Positions 13,150-59,265 of a stretch of 64,000 nucleotides of DNA are shown here, one piece after another (position 1 is the first letter of the stretch; each line of letters starts with the position of its first letter). Source of the stretch: Candidatus Egerieisoma sp. (GTDB lineage Bacteria > Bacillota > Clostridia > UBA1212 > UBA1255). The stretch covers positions 43,879 to 107,878 of the forward strand of contig JBGVNN010000010.1 of the NCBI GenBank assembly GCA_045125595.1, given 5' to 3'. The notes beneath the pieces are model-generated. The model did no database searches and was not told where the DNA came from. It saw nothing but the letters and a program-made list of their open reading frames with translations. The position numbers and the translations under genes were made by a program.

Positions 13150-13464
13150 ACTTTTGAAACCTCTTTCTTTTAATTAGATGTTTTTCGTTACGTATAACAG
13201 CTCGCACCCGTTTTCTTGTCACCCCGTCGTGTGTTTCATGTTCATCTCAATAAAAAAACCAAATTGAAATATCCTTCTCTTGAAGGATTTCAACCTGGGC
13301 ATAGATAAACACTTTACATACAACATGATACAATATTCAAGTGCATGACTTGTCGCCCGGTTTCACGAATCGGACATTCTCCACATGAGTTACCTGCCAT
13401 TCACGCGATCAAACGTGGGGCAGCAATCTCCTGCTTCTCAGTCTGTCAAGTCGCAACAGACAAA

Positions 13465-52305: not shown

Positions 52306-52944
52306 TTATTTATCCTCATCTGTTTTAATAATGTTTCTCAACGTAATTGATACGCATTCTTTATTATCAAAAGAATTAAAAAGAAAATAAGCACCGTTAT
52401 ACTTGTCATTTATTTCATGTTTATAATTTATTGATTCAGTAAAACTACAAGAATATTTCTCTCGACCATCGGGAGCACCAAAAGCTTTTTCAACAGTATT
52501 TTCGCCCGATTTGAGTTTTATTCCTTTTGCTATGACAAAATCATTTTGCCAATTATCGTTCACCTTAATTTCACCAATCTTGCAATCTTTGAGCATCTTA
52601 GCATTTTCGCTCATATTGTACGCCTCTACAAAAATCTTGTTGTTACCTTTAGAAAAGTGAAAATATACGTTTTTATCGTAGTGAACCATTGTATCTTCTG
52701 CAACTTCATCTAAAGAAGAAATCGACCAACCATTTTCCGTAAAATCTTTAAAATCGCACGGAAGTTGATAAACTACACCGTCAAGTTTAAAAGTGAAATC
52801 AAATAAATCATCTGACATAACAGGAGTAAATATAAAATATCTTGCAAGCAAAAACACAAGCACAGCCACAACAGCAGTAACCGCAACAGAAACAATTGCA
52901 ATTGTCACTGTTTTAAATTTTCTTTGATTAGCACATTCATCCAT
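52306..52944 (-). CDS. hypothetical membrane-anchored protein (212 aa)
   Basis: N-terminal TM VTIAIVSVAVTAVVAVLVFLL; last gene of the ECF sigma cluster. Confidence 0.5.
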   Translation of the reverse strand: MDECANQRKFKTVTIAIVSVAVTAVVAVLVFLLARYFIFTPVMSDDLFDFTFKLDGVVYQLPCDFKDFTENGWSISSLDEVAEDTMVHYDKNVYFHFSKGNNKIFVEAYNMSENAKMLKDCKIGEIKVNDNWQNDFVIAKGIKLKSGENTVEKAFGAPDGREKYSCSFTESINYKHEINDKYNGAYFLFNSFDNKECVSITLRNIIKTDEDK

Positions 52945-53158
52945 GATTACACCCTCCTTATCAAAAAGAAAAACATACCAAAAAGTAAAATTCTTAAATT
53001 GTCGTTATCTTGGTTTTATATTATCATTTCAATTGTGAAGACTCAAGGCATAACATGCAAACATTTCATGAACAATAATCTGCATTTTTCCGGCTTATTG
53101 CTGTTATCTGTGAAGGATAGGAATCAATAAATTTTTCTTATGTTAGAGCATTCTTCAT

Positions 53159-53683
53159 TTAATCATAGAAAAATTCATATTCAGGAAGTTTCTTCCATTC
53201 ATTTGTTCCTGTTAATATTTCTTCTATGCCCCTGCATACATCAAGAAATTTACGTGCTTTTTCATCGCTACTAAAGTACAGGGTATTTTCGTATACTGCT
53301 ACTTTCTTATCTATCCCTTCTGCCTTTACTGACAAAATCAAAGTTTCATACGGTGTCACCCAAATATTACGGTTTGGATCATAGACATCGGGATAGGACT
53401 CAATATCCAAATCTTCAATTAATTCCCATATTGCAGCGTACTGTTCTTCAGAAAGTTGAAGAAATGTAATATATCTATTAGGTTCGGTAGCATCTTTTGT
53501 TTTTATCAATTTTCCTGTTTTACTGTCGTACGAACTAATGCCGTAAGTATTCCATACTAAAGAGAAAGAGTAATTCGGTTCATTTTTACTTTGATTGATG
53601 ACAAATGAAACAATACTGAAAACAGCAACAAAAATGAGCGCTACCGTACAAATTATATACAAAAATCGAACATTATTTTTCAT
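53159..53683 (-). CDS. hypothetical membrane-anchored protein (start MKNNVRFLY)
   Basis: N-terminal TM, overlaps the upstream gene stop. Confidence 0.5.
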   Translation of the reverse strand: MKNNVRFLYIICTVALIFVAVFSIVSFVINQSKNEPNYSFSLVWNTYGISSYDSKTGKLIKTKDATEPNRYITFLQLSEEQYAAIWELIEDLDIESYPDVYDPNRNIWVTPYETLILSVKAEGIDKKVAVYENTLYFSSDEKARKFLDVCRGIEEILTGTNEWKKLPEYEFFYD

Positions 53684-54155
53684 TGAATATGAGCTCCTTA
53701 AGCAGGTCAATTTGTGCCTGCGTCAGTTCTGCTTGACCTTTGTCACAACGAGCATATCCCGCTGAAAAATTTATACCATAAACAATACCTAACTCGGTTT
53801 TAACATCGTATTCAGCCATACACTTGCACATTTTGTTTTTATCATATTGCAAATTTTCAAGAATATCTATCATGGTCGCAGCCGAGCTTTCTGATATAAC
53901 CATGTAAGTATTTTCATTTTTGAAATAAATGGTTGTCTGTACGTCGCTATCCGGCACTTTCTCTGTCGGTTGTTGAATAGTTGTCTGCACATCGCTATCT
54001 AACAATTCCCCGGTCGGTTGCTGACATACATCAGCAACGATCGAGGCACTATTTTCTTTATCACTCGGCATTTCCCCAAAAACCAAAACAGAGGCAGCAA
54101 CGAAAACAGCAGCAATACCTATAACGCATACCAATAAAATCCATGTTTTTTTCAT
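53673..54155 (-). CDS. hypothetical secreted/membrane-anchored protein with internal DSDVQTTI duplication
   Basis: Signal-anchor MKKTWILLVCVIGIAAVFVAA; internal repeat is also visible at DNA level. Confidence 0.5.
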   Translation of the reverse strand: MKKTWILLVCVIGIAAVFVAASVLVFGEMPSDKENSASIVADVCQQPTGELLDSDVQTTIQQPTEKVPDSDVQTTIYFKNENTYMVISESSAATMIDILENLQYDKNKMCKCMAEYDVKTELGIVYGINFSAGYARCDKGQAELTQAQIDLLKELIFNEK

Positions 54156-54177: not shown

Positions 54178-54747
54178 TCAGTTCAAAATCACCAAAAGCT
54201 CCTCTATTTGTTTTTTAGAAAGACGTATCCGAGTATCATTCTCCGTATTGCATAATATATTTTTTCTTAATACAAATTGAATTTCAGAACCATCTGCAGT
54301 ATTAAAACAAATTCTGTACTCTTTTTTTATGTCTATATCTAAAATTACCAAGCTGTTGCCATCATTCTTTGTCCCTGATGACTCTGAGCCATAGCTATCG
54401 CCTTTTATTGCTCCACCCTCTTGCGTATTGTTGCCCCCAAGAGAAGTTCCTGCATCTGAAGTTTTATACAAATTTAAAATCGCAGAATAGATTTCATTCA
54501 CTTTGGCGGAATCGGTAACAGTTTCGGTCCGAGCACCATTGTCATCAACACCTGTTATATCAACAGATACAAAACTATCCGTTTCCGTAGGGAACACTGC
54601 CGGCAGAATCGTCACCGACAATATGGTTAGAATAAAACAAAAAGTAATACAAACAACCAAGATGTGATTGCGCTTTGCTTTACGTTCTTTTATTCTTTCC
54701 TCACTGCGACGAAAAATTTCCGCTTTTCTTTCTTCAAAATTTTTCAT
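54178..54747 (-). CDS. putative membrane anti-sigma factor (non-ZAS): short cytoplasmic N-terminus, one TM, extracytoplasmic domain
   Basis: ATGA overlap with the upstream ECF sigma gene; topology of about 30 aa charged N-terminus plus TM; no HxxxCxxC motif. Confidence 0.5.
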   Translation of the reverse strand: MKNFEERKAEIFRRSEERIKERKAKRNHILVVCITFCFILTILSVTILPAVFPTETDSFVSVDITGVDDNGARTETVTDSAKVNEIYSAILNLYKTSDAGTSLGGNNTQEGGAIKGDSYGSESSGTKNDGNSLVILDIDIKKEYRICFNTADGSEIQFVLRKNILCNTENDTRIRLSKKQIEELLVILN

Positions 54748-55337
54748 AATAACAGCTCACCATCCTCTCCAAGAATGATGCGAAGTTCCTTTTTAGCACG
54801 ATATAAAAGATTGTCTATCTGTTTGTGATTTTTCTTCATAACCCTCGCTGCCTCTTTATAAGACAAATTTTCAAAATAAACTAAGTGTATGACAATACGC
54901 ATATCATCCGAAAGTAAGCAAAGGGCATTGTTTATTACTCGTTTCCGCTCGTCTGTAAGAACAGTTTCTTCAAGTGTTTCCTCCTCCGGAAACGCATTGT
55001 CGGCTTCTTCGAGTTCTACTAAATCAATAACCTTACGGTGTTTTATGTAGTTTAAAGCGCGACTCCGTCCGAGCATAAACAGATAAGTTTTCAATGTAAC
55101 CTTGAAATTATACCGATGCTTATTAACTATCAAATCTGAAAAAGCATCAATAGCAATATCTTCGGCTGCGTGTATATCATGCACATAACGATTAATAAAG
55201 AACACAAGATTATCAAACAATTCTTTCATTATATCGTCAAAGGCACTCTCGTCACCATCAAGGAAACGGCGGTAGCTACTTGCACCGTTGTCCATATGGT
55301 TTCCTCCTAATTTCCGGAGCATACTCGTCTCCTTCAC
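54744..55337 (-). CDS. ECF-subfamily RNA polymerase sigma-70 factor
   Basis: Region 2 (...FDNLVFFINRYVHDIHAAEDIAIDAFSDLI...) and region 4 (LSYKEAARVMKKNHKQIDNLLYRAKKELR). Confidence 0.8.
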   Translation of the reverse strand: MKETSMLRKLGGNHMDNGASSYRRFLDGDESAFDDIMKELFDNLVFFINRYVHDIHAAEDIAIDAFSDLIVNKHRYNFKVTLKTYLFMLGRSRALNYIKHRKVIDLVELEEADNAFPEEETLEETVLTDERKRVINNALCLLSDDMRIVIHLVYFENLSYKEAARVMKKNHKQIDNLLYRAKKELRIILGEDGELLL

Positions 55338-55382: not shown

Positions 55383-56252
55383 CTATTTCTGTCTTGCCAA
55401 AGCAAAAACGGCGCCGAGAATCAAAACCATACCTATTACAAGTGGAGCAGTCAAGTTTTCTCCCAAAAACGCAACACTAAAAACAGTAGCAGAAAGCGGC
55501 TCTATAATTCCGAGCGCAGTTGCCGTTCCTGCAGGGACATCTTTAAGTCCCATTGTATAGAAAACATATGGTAAAACGCAAGTAAACACACCTATGCCAA
55601 CAATAAGCGGAATAATTGAAAGCGGCTGTTTGCTTGTTATTGTTACGATTTCAATAGGATTTGATACTGCAAGACCTATAATACTCATAATAATAAAATT
55701 ATAGCTGGTTACAGTAAGAGTATCCACCTTGTGCATTGTGAGAATTTTCGTAAATATGTTATAAGCACTGTAAGAAATGCCCGCCGCAATTCCGAAAAGG
55801 ATTCCTGCAAGGCTGAACTTCATTCCACCAACTATGCCGGAAACGAGAGCGCAACCAAGTATCATTAAAAACACAGAAATACTTTTTACTGTATTCAACT
55901 TTTCGCCAAGAAACATTACTGAATATATGAGGACAAAAACGGGTGCGGTATACATCAATATAACTGCAGTTGAAACAGAAGACGCAGCCATCGAGGCATA
56001 GTATGTATATGCTGTTAAGAACAGACCAACACCGCTACCGATAATAAAGAAAATTTCCTTTTTAGGCACTTTTAACAACTTGGGATTTTTAAAAAGTATA
56101 AATGGCACAATCAAAACCATTGATACAAACCCACGCATTGTTGTCATTTGAACAGGCTTAAATCCAAAGGGGGTAAGCCAATAAGAGAAAAGACCACTTG
56201 TTCCCCAAAGAACACCAGCGAGAGCAATATAAAAAAAAGCACTTTTTTTCAA
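55383..56252 (-). CDS. EamA/DMT-family transporter (TTG start)
   Basis: 289 aa, 10 TM, two EamA repeats; RBS AGAGGTG then TTG. Confidence 0.7.
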   Translation of the reverse strand: MKKSAFFYIALAGVLWGTSGLFSYWLTPFGFKPVQMTTMRGFVSMVLIVPFILFKNPKLLKVPKKEIFFIIGSGVGLFLTAYTYYASMAASSVSTAVILMYTAPVFVLIYSVMFLGEKLNTVKSISVFLMILGCALVSGIVGGMKFSLAGILFGIAAGISYSAYNIFTKILTMHKVDTLTVTSYNFIIMSIIGLAVSNPIEIVTITSKQPLSIIPLIVGIGVFTCVLPYVFYTMGLKDVPAGTATALGIIEPLSATVFSVAFLGENLTAPLVIGMVLILGAVFALARQK

Positions 56253-56397: not shown

Positions 56398-57846
56398 TTA
56401 AGTATTTACTGAATACTCTTTTTTAAACCCATGTGCACCGAATATTTGCCACTGGCCAACACCAAGACGACTAATAATAGCTTTACGCTCAATCGCACAG
56501 AGCTTATGATCGGTGTCAACAGAGGTCATTAAAATCGGTGCATATTGATTATATTCTGCTTGTGCAGGTGTAAGTCCATGTATATTGATATACACATCTC
56601 CTGTCAGAGCAATATGGTGTGTGTAGTCAATCAATATGATTTCCCCCGGCAAGTGTCCGCCTTTGCCTTCATACACCTCAAAATGCAACTCTCCGAAATC
56701 AAAAAAACCGATTTGTGTAAGTGGCTCTGTTAATTCTTCAATACTATTTCCTACAACTTTAATCTTATCAGGATTTACAGGTTTATATGAGGTAAGAATT
56801 TTACAGATATTAATATACGGCTTGTGCAAAGGATTTTTTTCTCTGTATCCATCATTTCCGAGAAATTCATCCTTTAAACAAAGAGCAGTTCTGGGACTGG
56901 CTATAATCTCATCGAATATTGGAAGCAAACCGCAATGGTCAACATCTGCGTGTGTCACAAGGATGGTTTTCTTTATCTCATCAAAATTCGGGAGAATTCT
57001 CCGAATAACATCAAGCATTTCACTGTTAAAACAAGCATATCCGCTATCCACAAACATTATTTGCTCATCGCTTTTAATGATAATGGTATTACTGCCGCAA
57101 GGTGGTTCTATAAGAATAATTTCTGTACAGTCTGTTATTTTGTGGTTACTTACCCTTGGCATGAAGGCTTTACCTTTAGATGCACCCAGTAATTCCGCAA
57201 ACTTACTTATACTGTCAAAAGTTCTGTATGGAGATAACCCTTGTTCATCAAGTGTTTGCATAGCAAGATTAACATGAACCAAAAGTTCACGACTAACCTC
57301 GTCAGAAAGCCCCATTGTTTGAGACAATCCCATAACATATGTGTTATAGAAAATACTATTGTCGTAAACCTTTTCTGAACTGTTGTAATTTATTACGCGA
57401 ACCTTACAAAACGTTTCTGCTTCTGCAAGGAATTCTGAAATTTTACCTGCATCTTCTACATACAACCCCATTTTAAAGTATTGATAATTCGTACCGTTTT
57501 CTTGAGAGCTGATATATGAAATATTAAAATTAAAATCGCTGATTAAAGACAATATATTAGTAACACTTCCCGGAACATCTTCAAGGCAAAACTCAATCAA
57601 CACCACGCTCGTTTTGCTTGTATTATTTTGCAGATATCCGATTTTTTCAAGCTCGCTATCAGCTTTGTCTAATTGTTCTTTTGTGCCTTCTGCATCTATA
57701 AACAGCGTATGAGAGTCAACCGCCTTATTATAACTTACACGAGTAATATTAATTCCCAAGGCAGAAAAACATCTGCTCGCTTTAAGGAATGCACCTATAT
57801 CATCAGGCATTGATGTCACATATGTTTTTTTCATCTTTACCTCCAA
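56398..57846 (-). CDS. ACT-ACT-metallo-beta-lactamase-fold fusion protein
   Basis: Two N-terminal ACT-like ligand-binding modules followed by an MBL domain with THADVDHCG (HxHxDH), downstream His/Asp ligands; co-oriented with DAHP synthase, 30-nt gap. Confidence 0.65.
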   Translation of the reverse strand: MEVKMKKTYVTSMPDDIGAFLKASRCFSALGINITRVSYNKAVDSHTLFIDAEGTKEQLDKADSELEKIGYLQNNTSKTSVVLIEFCLEDVPGSVTNILSLISDFNFNISYISSQENGTNYQYFKMGLYVEDAGKISEFLAEAETFCKVRVINYNSSEKVYDNSIFYNTYVMGLSQTMGLSDEVSRELLVHVNLAMQTLDEQGLSPYRTFDSISKFAELLGASKGKAFMPRVSNHKITDCTEIILIEPPCGSNTIIIKSDEQIMFVDSGYACFNSEMLDVIRRILPNFDEIKKTILVTHADVDHCGLLPIFDEIIASPRTALCLKDEFLGNDGYREKNPLHKPYINICKILTSYKPVNPDKIKVVGNSIEELTEPLTQIGFFDFGELHFEVYEGKGGHLPGEIILIDYTHHIALTGDVYINIHGLTPAQAEYNQYAPILMTSVDTDHKLCAIERKAIISRLGVGQWQIFGAHGFKKEYSVNT

Positions 57847-57876: not shown

Positions 57877-58905
57877 TCAAAGTTTATCAGCTATATCAAG
57901 AATAAGTCTTTCGGTCTTTTCCCAACCAAGACAAGGATCTGTTATTGATTTGCCAAAAATATGCTCGCCCATGCTTTGAGCACCATCCTCAATGTAACTT
58001 TCAATCATCAATCCCTTAACAAGACGTTTGATAACTGAATTTTCATTGCGGCTGTGAACAATATCCTTTGCAATACGAATTTGTTCAAGATACTGTTTAC
58101 CTGAATTGTTATGATTTGTATCTACTATTACAGACGGATTTACCAGATTCGATTGCTCATAAAGCTCTTCTACTCTCAAAAGATCCTCATAATGATAATT
58201 TGAAGTACTTCTTCCCGCATAATCAATATAGCCGCGAAGTATGGCATGTGTACATGGATTGCCCTCGCTCGTAACCTCCCAGCCTCTGTAAATAAAAGTG
58301 TGACTTGACTGCGCTGCAACTATAGAGTTCATCATAACGCTAAGGTCTCCACTCGTAGGATTCTTCATTCCCACAGGTACGCTGATTCCGCTTGCTGTGA
58401 GTCGGTGTTGTTGATTTTCTACGGAACGTGCGCCAATCGCAACATACGCAAGCAAGTCGGAAAGGTAGTGGTAATTTTCCGGATAGAGCATTTCGTCGGC
58501 ACACGAGAAACCGTAATCTCGCAATGCCGCCAAATGCAGCTCTCGAATCGAAACAAGACCTTTATACATGTCCGGTTTAGCCTCTGGATCAGGTTGATGC
58601 AACATACCTTTGTATCCTTGCCCGGTAGTTCTCGGTTTATTTGTGTAAACCCTCGGAATAATAACTATTTTATCTGATACTTGTTCTTCAATTCTGCGAA
58701 GCCTTGAAATATATTCAAGCACCGGTTCACTATGGTCTGCGGAGCATGGTCCGATTATAAGAATAAATTTATCTGAGTGGCCATCAAAAACAGCTTTGAT
58801 ACTCTCGTCACGCTCTGCTTTAATTTTTCTCATTTTTTCTGTCAATGGATATTCTCCCATGACTTCTTCCGGTAACGGAAGTCTCCTATGAAAATTCATT
58901 CTCAT
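57877..58905 (-). CDS. aroG: 3-deoxy-7-phosphoheptulonate (DAHP) synthase class I-alpha; start at MRMNFHRR, ORF-track extension to 59013 runs through the T-box leader
   Basis: GPCS, KPRTT, AIGARSVENQ and SITDPCLGWE motifs match AroG/AroF. Confidence 0.85.
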   Translation of the reverse strand: MRMNFHRRLPLPEEVMGEYPLTEKMRKIKAERDESIKAVFDGHSDKFILIIGPCSADHSEPVLEYISRLRRIEEQVSDKIVIIPRVYTNKPRTTGQGYKGMLHQPDPEAKPDMYKGLVSIRELHLAALRDYGFSCADEMLYPENYHYLSDLLAYVAIGARSVENQQHRLTASGISVPVGMKNPTSGDLSVMMNSIVAAQSSHTFIYRGWEVTSEGNPCTHAILRGYIDYAGRSTSNYHYEDLLRVEELYEQSNLVNPSVIVDTNHNNSGKQYLEQIRIAKDIVHSRNENSVIKRLVKGLMIESYIEDGAQSMGEHIFGKSITDPCLGWEKTERLILDIADKL

Positions 58906-58984
58906 TAAAAAACACCCTTTCTTTTTGTCAGATACAATACTTTCGAATTGTGGAAGGGTAAACAAAAACGCCCTCCGCATTCCG

Positions 58985-59265
58985 ATAAAGAATACAGAGG
59001 ACGAGAAAATCAATAATCCCGTGGTACCACCTCAGTTCGTCGCTACCTCACGATAGTGACCTTTTCAAGTACTAACATACCTTAGTTCTATAACGGGAAC
59101 GCCCGTTGCCTCCTACTAAAGATTTTTATCTTATTCAGTGCACTGCTAGCAGAATGAATTCAGAAGGGCGTCCGCTTTGCCTCGCACCAACCGGCAACTC
59201 TCTCAAGATTCTTCCCAACCTACTGGTTTCTGATCTTCGCATTTAGTGTTACAACATATTTAATT
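58985..59265 (-). promoter_or_regulatory. T-box riboswitch leader, probable Phe (UUC) specifier
   Basis: Minus-strand leader contains AGAGAG box (59198-59204), distal hairpin ttgcc-ggttggtgcga-ggcaa, specifier-loop candidate GAA-UUC-A (about 59155-59162) and the conserved T-box sequence aactGAGGTGGTACCACGGG (59018-59037). Confidence 0.65.

Follow-up and report, generated by a model that had tools for sequence, protein, structure and literature searches.

An ACT-ACT-metallo-beta-lactamase protein family with recurrent placement in T-box operons for Phe, Ile and Leu in a clade of rumen Oscillospirales

Why should a protein that joins two small-molecule-binding domains to a metallo-hydrolase be encoded right behind the first enzyme of aromatic biosynthesis? 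The question is raised by a stretch of 64,000 nucleotides of Candidatus Egerieisoma sp., analysed here as a whole (the window), in which a gene for an ACT-ACT-metallo-beta-lactamase fusion (ACT-MBL) follows a DAHP synthase gene (aroG) and a T-box leader. The first-pass annotation, made from the sequence alone, read this pairing as the clue to function, suggesting an unusual allosteric or metabolite-damage-control role beside aroG for a gene that would not itself belong to the standard shikimate pathway.

The six-frame list of open reading frames contains the 482-aa frame originally described, at 56398..57846 on the minus strand, the strand of all the window features given below. Its TTG start at 57846 overlaps a GGAGG ribosome-binding site (57840..57844) that is read in the sequence from 57844 to 57840, 5 nt upstream of an ATG at 57834, and the close homologues are all 478 aa long with the N-terminus MKKTY. 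Because of the length and N-terminus of these homologues and the GGAGG in front of this ATG, we place the gene at 56398..57834, stop codon included, and judged from the sequence the ATG is most likely the better start. The frame and its ACT-ACT-MBL content, supported by the homologues and the domain matches, are thus kept, at a length of 478 instead of 482 aa.

Upstream of the two genes, a T-box leader was identified at 58994..59246 (Rfam RF00230, 104.1 bits, gathering score 93), with a specifier loop that reads GAA-UUC-A in the Rfam alignment, its UUC specifying Phe, in such a way that the Phe T-box proposed in the first-pass annotation is borne out. At its 3' end the Rfam match runs into the terminator hairpin of the leader (58969..59003, 15 pairs, followed by a T run with the tail TTTTTGTTT). 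The leader is followed by aroG at 57877..58905, whose 342-aa product is a DAHP synthase of the aroFGH type (type I-alpha), recognised by Pfam DAHP_synth_1 (E 3.7e-46) and by the NCBIfam models NF009395 (348 bits for a cutoff of 343, E 3.5e-104) and TIGR00034 (257 bits). Its likely start at ATG 58905 agrees with the 342 aa called for the same protein on contigs of the same species. The aroG stop ends at 57877, leaving a gap of 42 nt before the ATG of ACT-MBL, so the adjacency of the two genes was described correctly and its distance, given as 30 nt, was not. When this gap was scanned for signals, nothing resembling a terminator turned up, and two sites match a promoter weakly, at 9 of 12 positions. 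ACT-MBL therefore lies on the same strand as the T-box leader and 3' of it, with no terminator in between, and its co-transcription with aroG, as had been claimed, is likely on this sequence evidence. A T-box switches on the genes behind it when its cognate tRNA is not charged and, as the second gene behind the Phe T-box and aroG, ACT-MBL should consequently be induced by uncharged tRNA-Phe. On the other side, 145 nt 3' of ACT-MBL, lies a gene for an EamA-family transporter (55383..56252, Pfam EamA E 1.1e-40), which is also found behind ACT-MBL on the same-species contigs. Nothing convincing as a terminator was detected in the region after ACT-MBL, a promoter-like site (TTGCAA-17-TATAAT with TG, 56305-56277) precedes the transporter gene, and the transporter is a possible member of the same operon.

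The architecture of the protein was studied with Pfam and with an AlphaFold2 model (pLDDT 86.5, pTM 0.80) built on a family alignment of 33 members with identities down to 22%. The Pfam match to ACT falls in two stretches and scores 33.6 bits, that to Lactamase_B scores 24.8 bits, each exceeding its gathering score, and the predicted structure agrees with the ACT-ACT-MBL order given in the first-pass annotation. Two beta-alpha-beta-beta-alpha-beta units are predicted at residues 2-64 and 76-147. The first ACT domain (residues 1-68, 57631..57834) is delimited by secondary structure, by invariant columns and by the Pfam ACT match, and has G14, R32, D40 and F45 conserved, and the second (residues 76-147, 57394..57609) carries the D-x-P-G loop EDVPGS, in such a way that profile, fold and a Gly-containing ligand loop all point to the ACT family (PF01842). 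After a poorly modelled hinge (150-158) comes a three-helix linker (residues 162-218, 57181..57351; helices 162-174, 178-198 and 202-218), which is also present in ACT-less relatives. The MBL-type alternation of strands and helices runs from around residue 227 to the C-terminus, and the MBL-fold domain was set at residues 227-478 (56401..57156) from the Lactamase_B match, the conservation of its ligands and a profile alignment with BcII and LACTB2.

In this alignment the ligand positions of ACT-MBL coincide with the canonical MBL motifs, so that both profile and fold place the domain in the metallo-beta-lactamase superfamily (PF00753), with the five metal motifs present and one deviation among them. 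The metal ligands are H295, D297, D299, H300, H394, D413 and H468. At least 90% conservation among the 33 members was found for D263, T294-H295-x-D297-x-D299-H300, G392-G393-H394, D413 and H468, H394 being invariant in all 33, and N417, R450 and the LAPxLMTSVD segment are conserved as well. The only systematic departure is the replacement of the second His of HxHxDH by Asp across the family, seen in the window protein as THADVDHCG (residues 294-302, 56929..56955), the motif already picked out in the first-pass annotation. Having a complete binuclear ligand set (H-x-D-x-D-H, GGH, D, H), the domain is expected to be a working enzyme, and probably is catalytically active and not a pseudo-enzyme. 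A carboxylate at the position of the second His is typical of the di-iron flavodiiron proteins (HxExDH), for which reason the preferred metal may not be zinc, and the family-wide HxDxDH would make a useful case for the study of metal selectivity in the MBL fold.

ACT-MBL is a widespread, undescribed family that combines known ACT and MBL folds with an HxDxDH site and an association with T-box regulons. A word-indexed search returned 3,922 clusters at 90% identity (E <= 1e-3), whose source names were only "MBL fold metallo-hydrolase", "Zn-dependent hydrolase" and "hypothetical protein", and an exhaustive search of representatives at 50% identity returned 587 proteins at E <= 1e-3, 154 of them reaching E <= 1e-30. 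The family belongs mainly to gut and rumen Clostridia (Oscillospirales), with full-length ACT-ACT-MBL members down to around 24% identity and with ACT-less homologues of around 310 aa that begin at the three-helix linker (around residue 170). The contexts of two of these short homologues (P0168 and P0188) were examined and offered nothing informative. A second profile search of a large protein database yielded mostly the same clade. No NCBIfam model came near its cutoff with ACT-MBL, and structure comparison found no close solved structure for the family. In the literature searched, there was no description of the family as an ACT and MBL fusion, by the HxDxDH motif in this sense or by T-boxes with phenylacetate-CoA ligase, which is not proof of novelty.

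The genomic surroundings of the gene were then compared among relatives. A scan with one genome per GTDB species gave 355 relatives, of which the best 80, with 79-85% identity, were kept. Almost all of these loci come from MAGs, with labels such as Clostridia, Oscillospiraceae, Acutalibacteraceae and Ruminococcus, and where the name of a sample gives its source, this is the gut of goat, sheep, water deer, roe deer or water buffalo. The ORFs of the 80 loci were clustered, and the neighbours were identified by Pfam. The commonest neighbour on the same strand, in 30 of the 80 loci, is an acyl-CoA ligase of 766-848 aa in which HTH_3, Cupin_2 and AMP-binding domains are fused, followed by a MaoC-like hotdog protein (same strand in 21 of 80, usually directly upstream of ACT-MBL). 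Rarer neighbours are an HMGL-like protein with LeuA_dimer, a PaaK-type ligase (AMP-binding_C_2) together with a 143-aa ACT_8 "ACT pair" protein, GNAT proteins and class IV aminotransferases. In over half of the loci (45 of 80) at least one gene for a ligase, MaoC, GNAT, BCAT or an aro function lies no more than 3.5 kb away, and in most of the remaining loci the contig flanks are truncated.

T-boxes of three specificities are found at these loci, and in most of the T-box operons only 3-74 nt separate ACT-MBL from the preceding gene. Phe T-boxes closely resembling that of the window (105-117 bits in Rfam, GAA-UUC-A) lead PaaK and ACT_8 genes and then ACT-MBL, either directly (L012) or with GNAT and MaoC genes in some cases interposed (L002, L056), and in L033 the Phe T-box is adjacent to ACT-MBL, on its downstream side. 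An HMGL-like gene and a ligase gene stand behind Leu T-boxes (125-131 bits, CUC or CUG) in L017 and L063; the same HMGL-like and ligase string runs on the same strand into ACT-MBL in L017, through a MaoC gene, and in L036, where the Leu leader was found by nhmmer only. Ile T-boxes (around 96 bits, AUC) lead a ligase gene and then ACT-MBL in L039 and L063, and with an nhmmer profile an Ile-type leader was detected before the ligase in around 25 loci. In around nine of these, ACT-MBL comes after the ligase, at a distance of 32-140 nt or, in L051, past one extra ORF; in around 12 it lies just upstream of the Ile T-box and is therefore not controlled by it. The most direct case is L071, where an Ile T-box (90.3 bits, E 3e-20, slightly below the gathering score) has ACT-MBL as its next ORF, without a ligase in between. 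Thus the arrangement seen in the window, with ACT-MBL inside a T-box regulon, is shared by the orthologues of L002, L012, L056, L017, L036, L039, L063, L071 and others. When a neighbour-joining tree of 81 sequences was annotated by context, the Phe, Ile and Leu contexts appeared intermixed, supporting that the same orthologue has been placed in different regulons. The tree gave no evidence for a specialisation of paralogues for each amino acid.

Taken together, these data lead us to propose that ACT-MBL is an accessory enzyme of hydrophobic-amino-acid starvation regulons, gated by its ACT domains, a reading to which we give a probability of roughly 0.4. ACT domains usually bind end-product amino acids, and the ACT pair would here bind Phe, Ile or Leu and gate the hydrolase. 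The substrate would probably be an acyl-thioester or acyl-amide linked to the neighbouring ligases. The most economical guess is an acyl-thioester hydrolase, since acyl-CoA is what the ligase, MaoC and GNAT neighbours work on and since thioesterases are known within the MBL fold (PqsE, glyoxalase II), in such a way that the most likely chemistry would be hydrolysis of a thioester made by the ligase, for example phenylacetyl-, 2-methylbutyryl- or isovaleryl-CoA; thioesterase chemistry taken by itself is nevertheless a tentative and somewhat doubtful proposal. Such acyl-CoAs would be intermediates of known rumen routes from the corresponding acids to Phe, Ile and Leu. Besides the de novo routes, the microbes of the rumen form Leu out of isovalerate and Phe out of phenylacetate (PMC7356843). 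The enzyme would then serve as an amino-acid-controlled relief valve or feedback device, and its gene would move among Phe, Ile and Leu regulons, the position behind aroG being a single placement specific to this lineage.

Several points weigh against the reading of ACT-MBL as an accessory enzyme of these regulons. A search of the 64 kb of the window for genes of ligases, MaoC, GNAT, PaaK, ACT_8 and further aro functions found none. The MBL domain is remote from thioesterases, and to the same degree from lactamases, flavodiiron proteins, lactonases and phosphotriesterases. It would also seem self-defeating for an operon induced by starvation to encode a thioesterase that destroys a precursor, unless the enzyme is held off by the ACT pair. 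More distant family members stand in unrelated contexts, and in the around 12 loci mentioned above ACT-MBL precedes the Ile T-box instead of following it.

In its wider form, the proposal would make ACT-MBL an unrecognised class of amino-acid-gated thioesterases or deacylases controlling the ligase-dependent synthesis of Phe, Ile and Leu in rumen and gut Clostridia, which we regard as doubtful. If true, with phenylacetate, 2-methylbutyrate and isovalerate as precursors, a pathway with poorly defined genes would be found to have both Phe, Ile and Leu T-box wiring and a post-translational feedback. The recurrence behind the three T-boxes gives a concrete and testable hypothesis on function, and the genes beside ACT-MBL (acyl-CoA ligases, ACT proteins, MaoC, GNAT, aminotransferase) make of these loci a supply of candidates for the long-known, genetically ill-defined assimilation of phenylacetate and branched-chain acids in the rumen. 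If the ACT pair gates the MBL site, the protein would also add a new case to the metallo-hydrolases under end-product control.

Among the alternatives, the one that survives best, though still unlikely, is that ACT-MBL is a generic housekeeping hydrolase whose placement in T-box operons is an accident of the lineage without a functional link. Around 12 of the 80 loci, with complete flanks of 6 kb on either side, contain no amino-acid or acyl-CoA neighbour of those listed above, and recombinase genes flank ACT-MBL in some loci. Outside the close clade the contexts vary widely: a family member of a Methanocorpusculum MAG (47% identity) directly follows argC-argJ-argB, another distant member lies inside a hexuronate cluster (uxuA/uxuB/uxaC/eda/kdgK), and some have no evident functional partner nearby. 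As these contexts diverge, the association with T-boxes and ligases is solid for the rumen Oscillospirales clade and cannot be extended to the whole family. Within that clade, however, ACT-MBL is found behind three T-box classes and two ligase families, once directly behind a T-box, which makes descent from one ancestral arrangement hard to accept, and the short intergenic gaps likewise speak against an accident.

An amino-acid-gated phosphodiesterase or phosphatase, working on a phospho-metabolite or a signalling nucleotide with the logic that SerB2 would suggest by analogy, seems distinctly improbable. Many MBL-fold enzymes are phosphodiesterases, and distant family members adjoin or overlap phosphatase genes, with HAD hydrolases in two cases (L094, L095) and in L088 with a His_Phos_1 phosphatase, which the family member overlaps behind a thiamine pyrophosphokinase gene. 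The N-terminal MBL motifs also match weakly RNase J and aCPSF1, but only motifs 1-2 are covered (residues 251-340), the score with the beta-CASP ribonuclease model TIGR00649 is 18 bits against a cutoff of 400, a beta-CASP domain is lacking, and the close clade has no consistent phospho-metabolic neighbours.

The dedicated partnership with DAHP synthase, as an allosteric accessory or as a hydrolase controlling damage among shikimate or aromatic metabolites, is what the window itself suggests, and it becomes very unlikely once the relatives are considered. The DAHP synthase, the EamA transporter, the sigma factor and the flanking ORFs of the window were used as tblastn queries against the 80 loci. 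A DAHP synthase was found within 6 kb in only two of them (L020 and L058), on the opposite strand in both, and the order DAHP synthase, ACT-MBL, EamA recurs only on five metagenome contigs whose protein is 99% identical and which are therefore of the same species. The tie to aroG is thus seen only in this species, and a conserved pairing was rejected. In favour of the partnership, apart from the adjacency and the probable co-transcription behind the Phe T-box, ACT-MBL closes an aromatic operon in L048 (aroC-aroE/K-aroQ-aroA-tyrA-GNAT-ACT-MBL), in L058 it diverges from aroG-pheA-aroB-aroC and in L020 it converges with aroG-GNAT-MaoC, and its ACT region matches weakly the prephenate dehydrogenase, prephenate dehydratase and PAH regulatory domains. 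Against it, the pairings with Ile- and Leu-T-box ligases are far commoner, and the tree has no separate "aromatic" paralogue. With no conserved aroG or aroF neighbourhood among the 80 loci, the functional pairing put forward in the first-pass annotation is left unsupported, and the finding it had named beforehand as fatal to its reading, loss of that neighbourhood from the relatives, comes close to what is seen. Its view that this is not a standard shikimate-pathway gene is shared by us, and its amino-acid-sensing hydrolase holds in a broader sense, as a link to amino-acid supply through Phe, Ile and Leu T-box operons, ligases and one aro operon, without a specific partnership with aroG.

To the same low degree we credit a role as an amino-acid-gated lysine deacylase, that is, an amide hydrolase reactivating acyl-CoA ligases that had been acylated by a neighbouring GNAT, by analogy to the AcsA/AcuA/AcuC system of B. 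subtilis. Such a role would fit the ligases as commonest neighbours, MBL enzymes can hydrolyse amides, and for an activator it would be sensible to be induced by a T-box along with the ligase. A GNAT gene lies directly upstream of ACT-MBL in L004, L048 and L056 and nearby in L020, but these are only four of the 80 loci, the window has neither ligase nor GNAT, and we know of no MBL-fold protein deacylase.

The least probable of all is a di-iron redox or gas-sensing protein of the flavodiiron or ODP type, coupled to the ACT sensor and without hydrolase activity, since, in spite of the carboxylate in motif 2 and of structural matches to flavodiiron proteins and ODP, ACT-MBL differs from them in lacking a flavodoxin or other electron-transfer domain, in having Asp and not Glu, in its score with the NCBIfam flavorubredoxin model (NF008887, 13.7 bits against a cutoff of 635), and in a gene context of amino-acid and acyl-CoA metabolism and not of oxidative stress.

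Compared with the other known MBL proteins, ACT-MBL is also well separated. Its identity with glyoxalase II (GloB/YcbL) and PqsE is around 15%, and it differs from these enzymes, which have HxHxDH, in its HxDxDH, its three-helix N-terminal cap and its ACT pair; the glyoxalase II model TIGR03413 gave no match to the window protein at E up to 1, and 16-18 bits against 200.8 with the relatives. Scores were similarly low with the class B beta-lactamase models (NF012229, 17.3 bits against 100; NF033105, 12.8 against 240) and with the MBL of the defence protein Avs1a (15 bits for a cutoff of 420), too low to suggest a role in a defence system.

Regarding the sensory part, its fusion to an MBL domain sets the ACT pair of ACT-MBL apart from the regulatory ACT domains found in PheA/TyrA, PAH/TPH, the AHAS small subunit and IlvA. 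The ACT_8 "ACT domain pair" proteins associated with PaaK share the Phe-T-box operons of the relatives and also have tandem ACT domains, being presumed amino-acid sensors, whereas they are separate 143-aa proteins that lack a catalytic part and fall into another of the Pfam ACT families. The arrangement as a whole is most like that of the SerB2-type phosphoserine phosphatase, an ACT-ACT-HAD protein in which the end-product amino acid gates the hydrolase. Both proteins have two N-terminal ACT domains and a C-terminal hydrolase, and both are set in amino-acid metabolism, where the end-product gating proposed for ACT-MBL would follow the same logic, in such a way that the same design appears to be built on catalytic parts that are unrelated in sequence, a HAD domain in SerB2 and an MBL domain in ACT-MBL.

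Downstream of the ACT-MBL gene (coding for the ACT-ACT-metallo-beta-lactamase-fold protein) in the window, and on the same strand, lies a gene for an EamA-family transporter (55383-56252, minus strand; 145 nt downstream), which is retained beside ACT-MBL on same-species contigs. The EamA gene has a good promoter-like site of its own, TTGCAA-17-TATAAT with a TG (56305-56277), and no clear terminator was found ahead of it in the window. It is followed by an ECF-type sigma factor gene and a 189-aa ORF (54178-55337, minus strand), which overlap by 4 nt; the Sigma70_r2 and r4_2 domains were found in the same-species orthologue of the sigma factor. The 189-aa ORF has one hydrophobic segment, probably membrane-spanning judging from its sequence, and may encode an anti-sigma factor. 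This pair is followed by several small ORFs for membrane or secreted proteins (52306-54155). An S10-Clostridia ribosomal-protein leader (RF03136; 37.2 bits, gathering score 35.1) is found at 13350-13448 on the minus strand.

In some relatives, the ACT-MBL gene adjoins large ORFs that resemble serine recombinases in sequence (L076:870-5680, where three are consecutive, L029:228-1826 and L002:9034-10494), and such neighbours may explain its movement between operons. The MAG RGIG2110 holds two ACT-MBL copies on separate contigs (L039 and L079), 82% and 79% identical to the window protein, so paralogues may be present in some genomes.

Among the more distant family members, a homologue of 47% identity in a Methanocorpusculum MAG follows argC-argJ-argB at a distance of 8 nt (L081:2054-6540). 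Either the gene was acquired horizontally by an archaeon, or the contig was wrongly binned, or the protein is connected with arginine synthesis. Others, with 37-58% identity, adjoin or overlap genes for HAD-type or His_Phos_1 phosphatases (L094:472-2568, L095:1370-3407 and L088:5465-7416), which hints at phospho-ester chemistry in these lineages.

Phe T-boxes almost identical to that of the window control a PaaK-type ligase and an ACT_8 "ACT pair" protein (L002:2799-4925, L012:3809-5926, L056:2985-5066 and L033:7678-9789), an arrangement that fits phenylacetate assimilation into Phe during Phe starvation. Ile T-boxes (AUC, around 96 bits) precede a ligase fusion of unusual architecture, 766-848 aa long, in which an XRE-type HTH and a cupin are joined to an AMP-binding acyl-CoA ligase (L039:3335-5956 and L063:3325-5941, and also L040, L041, L061, L064 and L078). 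This T-box-controlled ligase, with its fused DNA-binding/sensor module, may mark the 2-methylbutyrate-to-isoleucine route. At L071:5495-7440, ACT-MBL itself is the first ORF after an Ile T-box (90.3 bits, slightly below the Rfam gathering score of 93), 262 nt downstream and without an intervening ligase.

Leu T-boxes (CUC/CUG) precede a gene for a 462-aa protein with HMGL-like and LeuA_dimer domains (L017:1394-3105, L063:8787-10496 and L036:2100-3488). The leaders score 125-131 bits in L017 and L063, while that of L036 was detected by nhmmer only. Compared by eye, its N-terminus reads VTDITLKKLAEE versus the TTLRDGEQ of isopropylmalate synthases, and the protein may be a Leu-sensing relative without catalytic activity.
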